A stretch of 64,000 nucleotides of DNA from Macrostomum lignano. Its lineage: Eukaryota. The notes under the pieces are model-generated. The model saw only the letters and a list, made by a program, of their open reading frames with translations. It was not told where the DNA came from and did not search any database. Both the position numbers and the translations under genes were made by a program. The stretch lies in assembly GCA_002269645.1 (NCBI GenBank), contig NIVC01000516.1:62001-126000 (forward strand), written 5' to 3'. Positions 8,073 through 58,455 of the stretch are shown one piece after another (position 1 is the first letter of the stretch; each line of letters opens with the position of its first letter).

Positions 8073-9637
<1,565 letters not shown>

Positions 9638-9676
9638 TGAGTCGCAGCCGCGTGTACTCTGGCCGGAGACCTCAAG

Positions 9677-9816
9677 TGACGTCAGTTCTAAAAATAGAAC
9701 GAATCACGAGGTCTTGCGCGCACTGAGACCCTGCCTCGAGATCTCAAGTGACGTCAGTTCTAAAAATAGAACAAGTCACGAGGTCTTGTGCGTGGGTGTT
9801 TCCCGGCTATAAATAG
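9677..9816. promoter_or_regulatory. LTR promoter module: two copies of (CRE TGACGTCA + MEF2-type CTAAAAATAG) upstream of a TATA/MEF2-type CTATAAATAG
   Basis: TGACGTCA at 9677-9684 and 9749-9756; CTAAAAATAG at 9688-9697 and 9760-9769; CTATAAATAG at 9807-9816. Function is inferred. Confidence 0.55.
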
Positions 9817-10243
9817 GACCCCTCTCCCCTTGTTTCCGTCAAGGATTTGGCTTCTTATCTGCGGAGAATTCACTAAGATCCCGTGTGCGTCAGTGTCTAA
9901 CTAAGTGCCCTTTGAGTACTGAATCCGTTTGTACTGGTCTGACTGAGACCCCACTAAAGCCCAAGCCTAAGGGAGGCTAACACTGCCTTCCCAGCCACCC
10001 CTGAGCCCGGCGGGGATCTGCTGATCAGGACGCCTTGTTCATTAACCTGCAAATCTGCACGCTGTGCTGAGTTCGTTGACTTGTTTATTTCGTTCCGACG
10101 GGAAGCTCACCTCATCGAAGGCCGAGACCTGAAGGAACTGGTGGCAGCACTACCTACGCTACTAAGAGTTAAGAAGGCTTCTGAGTGAGAGGACGGAGCC
10201 CAAGTCACTGCGCTGTACAGCAGGACAACCACAGGTACAACAC

Positions 10244-10326
10244 TGGTGGCAGCGGTGGGATTCAAAGATCTACCAGGCCACCCCGAGAAAACCCAAACTA
10301 TTTCACTGGTGGCAGCGGTGGGATTC
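10244..10326 (+). other. Two tRNA-Leu primer-binding-site sequences TGGTGGCAGCGGTGGGATTC (10244-10263, 10307-10326)
   Basis: Reverse complement of the 3' end of eukaryotic tRNA-Leu(AAG/UAG type) including CCA (..GAATCCCACCGCTGCCACCA). Each copy is preceded by CA plus one base. Confidence 0.8.
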
Positions 10327-11725
10327 AAAGACCTACCAGGCCACCCCGAGAAAACCCCCATTCTATAACACATCCTTAGCAAACAACTCGCCTGCGGGAT
10401 GTTTGTTGACTTCGAAGGAGCGTTTGACAATGTCCTTTTCCGCTCCTTCAGAAACTCTCTTTCCCGCAGGAATGTGAGACACAGCATTGTCCGCTGGATT
10501 TATTTTATGATCCGCAATAGGTTTGCGACATCTACGCTTATGGGCGTTACCTACACCCGGGCGGTGATGAAAGGCGGCCCGCAAGGTGGCGTGCTAACTC
10601 CACTTCTTTGGAATCTCGTCATGGACGAACTTCTAACCGCTGACATTCCCAGCAGTATCACCTGGACGGGCTACGCCGATGACGTTGCCGCGGTCGTCAG
10701 CGGACCCGACCCCGCCACTCTGCGCAACCTGATGCAGCAATTCGCCGACAAGGCGGCCGACTGGGCTACGCAGCATGGCCTAAATATCAGCGTCACCAAG
10801 ACTGTCGCTGTCGTTTTCACCAAGCGCCGTGCGTGGGAGATGAAAAACCTCACTGTCTATGGCAGAAACATCCCCTTCAAGAAGGAGGTCAAATACCTCG
10901 GTGTGACGCTAACGCATGACCTGCGCTGGACGAAGCACCTTGATAACGTCATCGGTCGGGCAAAACGCTGCTTTGCCCAGCTTCGCAGAGCCATCGGGCC
11001 GACTTGGGGCCTCTCACCTAGAACGGTCCGTTGGATTTACACCGGCATCATCCGGCCCAGTATCACGTACGCGAGTCTCATCTGGACTAGCGTGCTGGAG
11101 CAGAAGACCGCCCGTCAGCGCCTGTACCAGCTTCAGGGCAGCATTTGCCGTGCCATCACAGGTGCGTACCCGTCTACCCCCTACGAGGGGCTGAACACTA
11201 TCCTTAACCTGCCTCCGCTTCACCTATTCATTAGGGCGGAGGCTATGAAGTCTGCCTCCCGGCTTATCAGAGATAAAACGTTAAATAACGCACCCTCTGG
11301 CTCTATGCCAATGAAAACATTAATCCCGCATATGGACTTTGTCCGCCGCGACCTCAACAACATCCACATGGACCTGGGCAATGTGGATAGTCGACCTCCC
11401 GCCCTCAACATCAGGAGGGGCTTCAAGACCGCCATCCCTGGCCGAGACAATATTCTGCTGGATGTCGGTGTGAACCGGCGCAGCCAGGGCATTCACTGCT
11501 TCACCGACGGCTCGCTGTTCAAAGGCCGCACTGGAGCGGGTATTGCCATTTTCCACGAGGGTAAGATGCTTTTCCAGGAAAGTCTGCACCTCGGTGAGAA
11601 CACCTCAGTTTTCCAAGCTGAAATCTGCGCCATTGAGCAGTGTGCCCAGCAACTGCTTCAGGCGAACATAAATAACTTTGACATTAATTTCTACACTGAT
11701 AGCCATGCTGCTATTAAGGCCTTAA

Positions 11726-12452
<727 letters not shown>

Positions 12453-53854: not shown

Positions 53855-56800
53855 CTCTCCTCTCACCCACCATCTTTCCCCTCATCCCACCATCTCTCCC
53901 CTCATCCCACCATCTCTCCCCTCATCCCACTATCTCTCCCCTCATCCCACGATCTCTCCCCTCATCCCACCATCTCTCCCCTCATCCCACTATCTCTCCC
54001 CCTCACCCCACTATCTCTCCCCTCATCCCACCATCTCTCCCCTCATCCCACTATCTCTCCCCTCATCCCACGATCTCTCCCCTCATCCCACGATCTCTCC
54101 CCTCATCCCACTATCTCTCCCCTCATCCCACGATCTCTCCCCTCATCCCACCATCTCTCCCCCTCACCCCACGATCTCTCCCCTCATCCCACCATCTCTC
54201 CCCTCATCCCACTATCTCTCCCATCATCCCACTATCTCTCCCCTCATCCCACGATCTCTCCCCTCATCCCACCATCTCTCCCCTCACCCAACGATCTCTC
54301 CCCCTCACCCCACGATCTCTCCCCCTCATCCCACGATCTCTCCCCCTCATCCCACGATCTCTCCCCTCATCCCACCATCTCTCCCCTCACCCCACGATCT
54401 CTCCCCTCATCCCACCATCTCTCCCCTCATCCCAGTATCTCTCCCCTCATCCCACCATCTCTCCCCTCATCCCACCATCTCTCCCCCTCACCCACCATCT
54501 CTCCCCTCATCCCAGTATCTCTCCCCTCATCCCACCATCTCTCCCCCTCATCCCACCATCTCTCCCCCTCACCCCACGATCTCTCCCCTCATCCCACGAT
54601 CTCTCCCCCTCACCCACCATCTCTCCCCTCACCCACGATCTCTCCCCTCACCCCACGATCTCTCCCCTCATCCCACGATCTCTCCCCTCACCCCACGATC
54701 TCTCCCCTCATCCCACGATCTCTCCCCTCATCCCACGATCTCTCCCCTCATCCCACCATCTCTCCCCCTCACCCCACGATCTCTCCCCCTCACCCCACGA
54801 TCTCTCCCCCTCATCCCACGATCTCTCCCCCTCACCCCACGATCTCTCCCCCTCATCCCACGATCTCTCCCCTCATCCCACCGTCTCTCCCCCTCACCCC
54901 ACGATCTCTCCCCTCATACCACCATCTCTCCCCTCATCCCACCATCTCTCCCCTCATCCCACTATCTCTCCCCCTCACCCCACTATCTCTCCCCTCACCC
55001 CACTATCTCTCCCCTCACCCACCATCTCTCCCCTCATCCCAGTATCTCTCCCCTCATCCCACCATCTCTCCCCTCATCCCACCATCTCTCCCCCTCACCC
55101 CACGATCTCTCCCCTCATCCCACGATCTCTCCCCCTCACCCCACGATCTCTCCCCCTCATCCCACGATCTCTCCCCTTCATCCCACGATCTCTCCCCTCA
55201 TCCCACCATCTCTCCCCCTCACCCCACGATCTCTCCCCTCATCCCACCATCTCTCCCCTCATCCCACCATCTCTCCCCTCATCTCACTATGTCTCCCCCT
55301 CACCCCACTATCTCTCCCCTCACCCACCATCTCTCCCCTCATCCCAGTATCTCTCCCCTCATCCCACCATCTCTCCCCTCATCCCACTATCTCTCCCCTC
55401 ACCCACCATCTCTCCCCTCATCCCAGTATCTCTCCCCTCATCCCACCATCTCTCCCCTCATCCCACGATCTCTCCCCTCATCCCACCATCTCTCCCCTCA
55501 TCCCACGATCTCTCCCCCTCACCCCACGATCTCTCCCCCTCACCCCACGATCTCTCCCCCTCATCCCACGATCTCTCCCCTCATCCCACCGTCTCTCCCC
55601 CTCACCCCACGATCTCTCCCCTCATACCACCATCTCTCCCCTCATCCCACCATCTCTCCCCTCATCCCACTATCTCTCCCCTCACCCCACTATCTCTCCC
55701 CTCACCCCACTATCTCTCCCCTCACCCCACTATCTCTCCCCTCACCCACCATCTCTCCCCTCATCCCAGTATCTCTCCCCTCATCCCACCATCTCTCCCC
55801 CTCACCCCACGATCTCTCCCCTCATCCCACGATCTCTCCCCCTCACCCCACGATCTCTCCCCCTCATCCCACGATCTCTCCCCCTCATCCCACGATCTCT
55901 CCCCTCATCCCACCATCTCTCCCCCTCACCCCACGATCTCTCCCCTCATCCCACCATCTCTCCCCTCATCCCACCATCTCTCCCCTCATCTCACTATCTC
56001 TCCCCCTCACCCCACTATCTCTCCCCTCACCCACCATCTCTCCCCTCATCCCAGTATCTCTCCCCTCATCCCACCATCTCTCCCTCATCCCACCATCTCT
56101 CCCCCTCACCCACCATCTCTCCCCTCATCCCAGTATCTCTCCCCTCATCCCACCATCTCTCCCCCTCATCCCACCATCTCTCCCCTCACCCCACGATCTC
56201 TCCCCTCATCCCACGATCTCTCCCCCTCACCCACCATCTCTCCCCTCACCCCACGATCTCTCCCTCTCACCCCACTATCTCTCCCCTCACCCACCATCTC
56301 TCCCCTCATCCCAGTATCTCTCCCCTCATCCCACCATCTCTCCCCTCATCCCACCATCTCTCCCCCTCACCCACCATCTCTCCCCTCATCCCAGTATCTC
56401 TCCCCTCATCCCACCATCTCTCCCCCTCATCCCACCATCTCTCCCCCTCACCCCACGATCTCTCCCCTCATCCCACGATCTCTCCCCCTCACCCACCATC
56501 TCTCCCCTCACCCTACGATCTCTCCCCTCACCCCACGATCTCTCCCCTCATCCCACGATCTCTCCCCTCATCCCACCGTCTCTCCCCCTCACCCCACGAT
56601 CTCTCCCCTCATACCACCATCTCTCCTCTCATCCCACCATCTCTCCCCTCATCCCACGATCTCTCCCCTCATCCCACGATCTCTCCCCTCATCCCACGAT
56701 CTCTCCCCTCATCCCACCATCTCTCCCCTCATCCCACGATCTCTCCCCCTCACCCCACGATCTCTCCCCCTCATCCCACGATCTCTCCCCCTCACCCCAC

Positions 56801-57225
56801 GATCTCTCCCCCTCATCCCACGATCTCTCCCCTCATCCCACCGTCTCTCCCCCTCACCCCACGATCTCTCCCCTCATACCACCATCTCTCCCCTCATCCC
56901 ACCATCTCTCCCCTCATCCCACTATCTCTCCCCCTCACCCCACTATCTCTCCCCTCACCCCACTATCTCTCCCCTCACCCACCATCTCTCCCCTCATCCC
57001 AGTATCTCTCCCCTCATCCCACCATCTCTCCCCTCATCCCACCATCTCTCCCCTCATCCCACCATCTCTCCCCCTCACCCCACGATCTCTCCCCTCATCC
57101 CACGATCTCTCCCCTCATCCCACCATCTCTCCCCCTCACCCCACCATCTCTCCCCTCACCCCACCATCTCTCCCCCTCACCCACCATCTCTCCCCTCACC
57201 CCACTATCTCTCCTCTCACCCTCTG
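53855..57225. repeat. 3.4-kb pyrimidine-rich minisatellite (~21-23 bp, ATCTCTCCCCTCATCCCACS)
   Basis: About 150 variable units. Confidence 0.97.
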
Positions 57226-57879
57226 CCAGCCTTCTCTCCTTCGCTCCCCTGCTCTATTTTCTCTCTTCCCACTCTTGTCTCACGATGGAATTTCTTGTCT
57301 CCTCCCATATTTAAAGCTATTCTAATTTTTCATCTCTAAATTTCCTCCCCGATCCGAGGGTACCGCAGTGACCCAGTTTCTGTCCTTCATCTTTCATCGC
57401 CAATTGAATGCCGACTATTCAGCACAAGCAAAATAGAGAAGCAAACAAAAGCCAAGCAAAAATACCCATGCCGCCACTCAGGAAGTTGAAGTCTGTCAGG
57501 TCATTGTTTTCTATTCCAAAATATACAGAACTGCTGCAGCGTGATCGGGGCTCACGCAATCTGCCCCCACCCGCTCCCCCTACCTTGGCTCACCTGTCGC
57601 CAATAGCATTCATATCCGACATCAAGTCAGGACAATGTGAGCTGTCTGAAATTTTCGGTTTCCTGCAAAAAATTTCTCTCTGTCTTCCAGGCCGGCTTTT
57701 CCGCGTTTAGCCAATTCAGTGCGTCCCAAGTCGGAAACTGCGTCATAAATGATGAGGCTTCGCTGTTTGCAAACTGGTTTGTCGGGGTGCTTTACCTGCT
57801 TCCAACCCGTACCATTGGTAATGTTGTTTGCGAATTATGACTGCGGATTTATTAAAGAGGTGCAGCTGCTGATGGAGTT

Positions 57880-58455
57880 TTGTGTTGTTTTCTTGTTGTT
57901 GTTGTTGTTTTTGTTGTTGTTGTGTTATTGTTGTTGTGTTGTTGTTGTTGTGTTGTTTTTGTTGTTGTATTATTGTGTTGTTATGTTGTTGTTGCTGTTG
58001 TTATTGCTGTGGATCCTCATCATTCCTCTCTTTCTCCAGCAGCTTTACTCTCTCCCGGAAGTCTTTCCACAGCGAGAAGCACTCCCGGGGTTGCTGGCAC
58101 AGCACGCTGAGGTCTTCGATGCCTCTTTTGTTGTTGTTGTTGTTGTTTTATTGTTGTTGTTATGTTGTTGTTGTTGTTGTTGTTATTGTTGTTGGTTGTG
58201 TTGTGTTGTTGTTGTTGTTATGTTGTTGCTTTTGTTGTGTTGTTGTTTTTTGTTGTTGATGTTGCATTATTGTTATTGCTTTTTGTCGGTTTTTTGTTGT
58301 TGTTGTTTTTGTTGTGATATTGTTGTTCTTATGTTGTCGTTGTTGTTGTTGTTGTTGTGGTTTTTGTGTTACTGTTTTTTGTTGGTTTGTTGTTGTTGTT
58401 GTGTTGTGGTTTTTTATTGTTGTTGTCGTGTCATTGTTGTTGTTTTGTTGTTGTT
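57880..58455. repeat. Degenerate (TGT)n in two blocks
   Basis: Direct observation. Confidence 0.92.

Follow-up and report, generated by a model that had tools for sequence, protein, structure and literature searches.

Tandem tRNA-Leu primer-binding sites inside the LTRs of a Ty3/gypsy family of Macrostomum lignano, and a candidate route by which their number changes

Arrays of units that each join a tRNA-Leu primer-binding site (PBS) to an LTR end (att) are real and recurrent within the LTRs of a Ty3/gypsy family of Macrostomum lignano, here called family A. The tRNA likely primes mostly at the most distal PBS, and unit number would change during reverse transcription, growth occurring by out-of-register strand transfer between co-packaged RNAs, a reading to which we give a probability of about 0.65. 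One family-A copy lies in the window, the whole stretch of 64,000 nucleotides that was analysed (contig NIVC01000516.1, positions 62,001 to 126,000), as a solo LTR that interrupts the reverse transcriptase (RT) frame of a host non-LTR retrotransposon:

8426 to 9259, plus strand: left part of the host non-LTR retrotransposon RT frame (RVT_1 positions 1-60)
9256 to 9259, plus strand: left target-site duplication (TSD), CATC, from flank comparison and the empty site in sequencing-run contigs
9260 to 10370, plus strand: solo LTR of 1111 bp, TGT...ACA, of the young Ty3/gypsy family A
9656 to 9792, plus strand: two 65-nt direct repeats with a 72-nt period, in the presumed U3 (a putative assignment)
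9808 to 9817, plus strand: TATA-like box, presumed promoter (a function suggested by sequence)
10139 to 10148, plus strand: 10-nt PBS relic (TGGTGGCAGC) within the core LTR, with no att-like CA before it
10221 to 10242, plus strand: end of the core LTR (att 1), the integrated end of 0-unit copies
10243 to 10305, plus strand: unit 1, 63 nt; 1-nt spacer, perfect tRNA-Leu PBS (10244-10261), conserved 24-nt spacer with a predicted fold-back on this PBS, variable tail, att 2
10306 to 10370, plus strand: unit 2, 65 nt; PBS (10307-10324), predicted stems 10308-13/10340-45 and 10317-22/10332-37, tail, att 3, which is the integrated end
10371 to 10374, plus strand: right TSD, CATC
10375 to 11997, plus strand: right part of the host non-LTR frame, RT (RVT_1 positions 65-205) and RNase H (RNase_H)

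The preliminary description, whose coordinates covered only the tail of this 1.1-kb solo LTR, had claimed a CATC duplication at its ends and a host RT frame that is restored when the insert is removed. Exact copies of CATC are indeed found at 9256-9259 and 10371-10374, both halves of the host frame are open in phases that fit an insertion of 1115 nt, and an empty site that skips exactly 1115 nt was recovered in contigs of three of four sequencing runs, and within 1 nt in the fourth. The TSD-flanked complete elements described below, together with the empty site, rule out a chance match of CATC beside an internal deletion. The copy is therefore a solo LTR in that one LTR stands between two TSD copies with a recoverable empty site, but it departs from the expectation that a solo LTR retains no PBS, as perfect PBSs begin at 10244 and 10307. 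A second copy of the locus with the same flanks (L001, C955:320305-323479) represents either a duplicated region or a haplotype. Elsewhere in the window, positions 54001-58000 have an extreme GC skew (-0.92 and -0.66) and are probably simple repeats.

The last 128 nt of the window LTR consist of two units of a tRNA-Leu PBS, a conserved 24-nt spacer, and att; their lengths of 63 and 65 nt, their starts (C followed by TGGTGGCAGCGGTGGGATTC), and their ends agree with what had been described. The proposed complementarity to tRNA-Leu was confirmed against the 3' end of genomic tRNA-Leu(AAG/TAG) with CCA added, at 20 of 20 positions for the 20-mer and 22 of 23 positions for the units; the tRNA 3' pattern has 12 exact matches in the genome, and all eight that were fetched are tRNA-Leu genes. 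The unit 20-mer occurs twice in the window and in none of 100 shuffles. The 22-nt tail before each att is hypervariable, with 41 variants in 48 one-unit LTRs, and the tail of unit 1 also terminates the one-unit solo LTR L030. In 139 LTR pairs whose cores are near-identical, divergence is 0.25 per site over the terminal 22 nt versus 0.006, and only 59 pairs have the same unit number.

Several other explanations of the unit were discarded. In-frame repeats of 21 codons would be compatible with element L060, where gag stays open across both units, but other copies break this frame by unit lengths of 62-66 nt and by the 2-nt PBS insertion. An origin of the spacer as the real leader of a sister family was ruled out, since none of 40 fetched unit loci, taken from the matches listed (of 229), runs into a different internal region. 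A search of Rfam gave a single below-threshold match (mir-17, 22.6 versus 49.5 bits), which we take as chance, and viral_contigs gave no match. The genome pattern search also found a 28-nt minisatellite whose unit is similar to the tRNA-Leu 3' end (acceptor strand and T arm) in reverse complement and which is devoid of att ends (G000; C393:302901-303593, C928:18120-18779, C2548:18252-18945, and C4359:45973-46605).

By sequence, family A is a Ty3/gypsy family with an RT closest to Ty3-type enzymes. Its full-length relatives encode gag and then PR-RT-RH-IN, in L060 with RVT_1 at 450-610, RT_RNaseH at 709-810, Integrase_H2C2 at 1255-1313, and rve at 1330-1425, and the best solved-structure matches of the RT are 4ol8 and 7q5b (Ty3-G Gag-Pol, E ~1e-39). 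Paired TG...CA LTRs, TSD, PBS, and polypurine tract were found in 41 complete elements. In the L060 pol, RNase H is separated from the integrase zinc finger by ~440 aa (residues ~810-1250); this stretch is unusually long and in part repetitive, and it has no Pfam match. The 28-mer around the PBS relic in U5 has 370 exact occurrences in the genome, the exact unit core at least 229, and the junction of distal PBS and leader 63. The exact unit was present in 29 of the first 100 LTRs and a degenerate unit in 5 of 13 others fetched, which is indicative that roughly half of the family-A LTRs have units. Most LTR pairs differ at only 0-5 places, and the family is therefore young. Most copies have the TATA-like box at LTR position ~549. 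One insertion site is occupied in some copies by a full-length element and in some by a solo LTR, as seen on comparing L028 (C4574) with L026/L027 (C5151) and L051 (C224).

For the comparison of unit numbers, 61 junction loci were scored, and 41 complete elements were left after dropping four duplicates, five loci without an LTR start, seven without a scored 3' LTR, and four pieces of tandem elements (L047 and L064, both among the 41, may be one insertion). The unit numbers of 5' and 3' LTRs in these TSD-flanked elements were 0/0 in 22, 1/1 in 12, 2/2 in four, 4/4 in one, and 1/0 in two, so that 39 of 41 have the same number at both ends, as had been predicted from the window copy. Length classes had been predicted as well, and LTRs were found to end after 0, 1, 2, 3, or 4 units with TSDs at the distal end, which excludes a family with a single PBS and LTRs ending solely at 10242. 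Elements such as L062, L070, L238, and L246 end with a TSD at the core LTR end, and in a sample of solo-type LTRs enriched for units, 46 of 55 have an exact TSD at the distal end (4/6 with no unit, 27/33 with one, 13/14 with two, and 2/2 with three). One further PBS, followed by a different leader, lies directly after the 5' LTR of complete elements, which the preliminary description had also anticipated (e.g., two units plus a PBS in C659, four plus a PBS in C4285); all of its checkable predictions held. Equal numbers of units in both LTRs and one more PBS after the 5' LTR indicate that the tRNA likely primes mostly at the most distal PBS. Priming at a unit PBS instead seems rare, as just two of the 41 elements have one extra 5' unit, for which other explanations exist. 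Distal priming accounts for the retention of units but not for growth in their number.

The distal, working PBS is perfect in 12 of the 41 complete elements, whereas 27 have a 2-nt insertion after position 5 (a bulge), often with a G-to-A change at position 15; one more has a deletion and one a substitution. Unit PBSs are perfect, while the distal PBS is usually bulged. All ten unit-bearing elements with a bulged distal PBS are symmetric, as is L073 read by eye, and it is therefore likely that the bulged site primes while the perfect upstream sites are passed over. A similar insertion with the same G-to-A change was found in the distal PBS of one family-C element.

The fold of the unit was considered as a reason for this choice. 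The 24 nt after the PBS are predicted to form a 12-bp fold-back stem on it (-17 and -20 kcal/mol), a fold only slightly better than chance, as 137 and 73 of 1000 spacer shuffles fold as well as the units (p ~0.07-0.14). Across 143 unit instances, seven spacer changes in stems keep pairing and six break it, 14 lie at unpaired sites, and no compensatory pairs were seen in the predicted stem. By nearest-neighbour energies, tRNA pairing at the unit nets ~-20 kcal/mol once its hairpin has been opened, whereas the commonest bulged PBS nets ~-14 kcal/mol. The model still favours the unit as the tRNA site, and energetics thus do not explain distal priming. The hairpin was accordingly rejected as the full reason, though the modelled fold may lower priming at units while being insufficient on energetics alone. 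Pairing of the spacer with the 5' part of tRNA-Leu was predicted at -20.4 and -22.7 kcal/mol (p ~0.14 and 0.06), and an origin of the spacer as a copy of the tRNA D arm was not adopted since that pairing is weak against shuffles (117 and 286 of 2000).

The proposed route of growth starts from plus-strand strong-stop DNA, which would end in a perfect copy of the tRNA. If the minus strand were copied from a second, unprimed RNA, the strong-stop end could pair with any of the PBS complements; pairing at a unit PBS would stack the units of two parents, and a bulged distal PBS would bias the choice to the perfect unit sites. Units would be lost by more distal annealing, by template jumping between repeats, or by rare proximal priming. 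Copying of the primer into the plus strand, with reversion of the PBS, is described for endogenous retroviruses in the accessible text of PMC7472051; the same text describes the PBS of Ty1 and Ty3 as strictly inherited, and tRNA copying can therefore not be assumed for every gypsy element. In L048, L058, and the tandem L082/L084, the two LTRs differ at 7-9 places in the last 90-150 nt and at 1-3 in the other 900 nt, and differences so nearly confined to the U5 end are indicative of two RNA templates; L082/L084 has no unit at its 5' end and one at its 3' end. Multi-unit arrays are mosaics of unlike units in 15 of 21 cases (a tally in which five terminal tails were clipped by 3 nt), and some of their tails recur in one-unit LTRs. 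Of 12 rows of recurring U5 variants (two of which are a single, clipped variant), six are found with differing numbers of units. An LTR-core tree has 37 unit-number changes in 101 rows versus a shuffled mean of 44, a scatter that agrees with the scheme but was rejected as a count of gains and losses because reassortment of U3 and U5 alone could give it. Growth is read from end products, no intermediates having been observed, and none of the 41 complete family-A elements has more units at the 5' than at the 3' end with at least one at the 3' end, which would be the direct signature of growth. In family C, C440 (2/1, TSD ACTA) has a 3' unit that resembles the second of its 5' units, as would follow from a deletion between repeats more readily than from the growth scheme.

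The tandem-PBS pattern has 88 matches in the genome, and units are not limited to family A. The same or a closely similar unit core is present in family B, with an RT 97-100% identical to that of A and an LTR alignable over 135 nt; in family C, where the RT is 75% identical, four-fold sites are at chance, and the LTR is not alignable; and in family E (RT 68%). Families C and E have the unit in both LTRs of TSD-flanked elements, and family E has older unit relics as well as one copy without a unit. The U5 of family-E loci L203-L215 (C1474, C629, C255, C73) holds layered truncated PBS relics, each after an att-like CATTACA, followed by an 83-nt unit, and C255 resembles a tandem array with shared LTRs. 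The family-E array L202 was not adopted as a fresh microhomology duplication, since a TSD could not be verified for it and comparable relics are present in its relatives. In family D, for which no LTR boundaries are assigned here, the 59-nt units are unrelated to these and hold the tRNA copy at its full 18 nt, whereas the last PBS of the array is only 11 nt, a contrast that we count for strand-transfer growth. In L182-L184 of this family, ~3 kb of AT-rich, degenerate tandem repeats lie beyond the array and no long ORF occurs within 10 kb; this is possibly a non-coding element. Three marine metagenome contigs have unrelated units of ~60 nt. One of them, L180, contains a 359-bp element bounded by a GCAT duplication. 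It combines a palindromic TG...CA core of 48 bp with five PBS units, and the tails of these units are the reverse complement of the element's first 33 nt.

The unit could instead be a selected cis-element, a perfect PBS locked in a hairpin and retained for its function, either by decoying 3' tRNA fragments (tRFs) or tRNA-guided silencing or through an RNA structure that serves packaging or strand transfer; we consider this possible but unlikely. Between families A and C, whose RT four-fold sites are at the chance level (0.23-0.27), the 24-nt spacer differs at only 2-3 positions, and family E departs from it at 5-6, with family-level changes mostly at unpaired positions. Mismatches of the distal PBS fall where tRF seeds would pair, going by tRNA numbering, and mismatched PBSs are proposed as an escape from tRFs in the available part of PMC7472051. 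Nevertheless, the units are dispensable, being absent at the 3' end of 24 of the 41 complete young elements, a perfect site on the same RNA would attract silencing rather than deflect it, and loop positions are also conserved, which structure alone does not demand. With similarly low odds, the unit could be a small selfish module that hitch-hikes between co-packaged families via the shared PBS and gives the element no benefit. Identical or near-identical unit cores on the LTRs of family B and on those of family C, which blastn does not align, would fit such movement, as would the polymorphic presence of units in families A and E, but the families share LTR starts, A and C also a similar polypurine tract, so that conservation of cis-elements by descent is plausible, and unit divergence (A=B, then C, then E) tracks RT divergence. 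Less likely still is a neutral tandem repeat, in which one ancient duplication of LTR tail, PBS, and leader is changed by unequal exchange or slippage at the DNA level and merely copied to both LTRs by reverse transcription: 6 of 21 arrays have identical or near-identical units, LTR-sharing tandem elements (C1903, C3668, C255) show that unequal LTR exchange happens, many LTRs are unit-free, and short blocks are common to the unit spacer and the family's own leader. Against it stand the mosaic arrays, the very young elements whose LTR discordance is confined to U5, and a spacer that hardly changes between families although their synonymous sites are saturated.

The U5-PBS junction of family A resembles that of canonical Ty3/gypsy elements and retroviruses in its TG...CA ends, 4-bp TSD, PBS 1 nt after the 5' LTR, polypurine tract, and gag followed by PR-RT-RH-IN, but differs in the 0-4 extra perfect PBS+att units in U5. 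HIV vectors engineered with two primer-binding sites, work attributed to Voronin and Pathak in 2004, reportedly show frequent dual initiation, going by its title. As in those vectors, two PBSs on one genomic RNA compete for initiation; unlike them, the family-A array is natural and heritable, its LTRs are mostly symmetric, and each site has its own att end. Ty1 and Ty3 have a multipartite PBS with extra pairing to other arms of the primer tRNA. Drosophila gypsy has 5' and 3' PBSs, as given in the accessible text of Gabus et al. (2006; PMC1635307). On these accounts, more than one tRNA-pairing site per gypsy-type RNA, of which one suffices for priming, is common to these elements and family A, although the former have these sites at the two ends of the genome or pair them with different arms of the tRNA, whereas family A has complete PBS+att cassettes in tandem and in varying number. 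In mouse ETn, MusD, and IAP, the 'common' PBS is mismatched and perfect revertants occur (Cullen and Schorn, 2020; PMC7472051, available text). Family A is similar in that its commonest working PBS is imperfect and that perfect (12/41) and imperfect forms occur among close relatives, but it also stacks perfect PBSs inside the LTR, and no such units are described in the available text of that paper. We found no description of variable PBS+att arrays inside LTRs in the literature searched, which took in few subscription journals and neither Repbase nor supplements; the supplements of element catalogues for this genome may bear on the point.

A wider scheme, a "U5 ratchet" in the whole tRNA-Leu-primed gypsy group, is tentative and in our view improbable as a whole. 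The working PBS would be kept bulged to escape tRNA-fragment silencing, and the strong-stop tRNA copy would prefer the hairpin-locked U5 cassette, which would stack, move between families via the shared PBS, and seed hundreds of solo LTRs with perfect tRNA-Leu sites that could serve in trans as decoys or to nucleate silencing.

The arrays break the rule that the PBS sits outside the LTR and is lost from solo LTRs. Solo LTRs are treated as having no downstream internal sequence in the accessible part of PMC12853362, yet the perfect PBS+att units inside U5 mean that family-A solo LTRs keep PBSs. For annotation, tools would place the LTR end at the first PBS. If tRFs (PMC7472051) or pre-tRNA/Puf68 complexes (PMC13537249) act via the PBS here, these solo LTRs would be silencing targets or sponges. 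The variable tails are natural barcodes of the template RNA, and through them family A keeps a record, in the genome of a living animal, of the choice of priming site, of primer copying, and of strand transfer between two templates.
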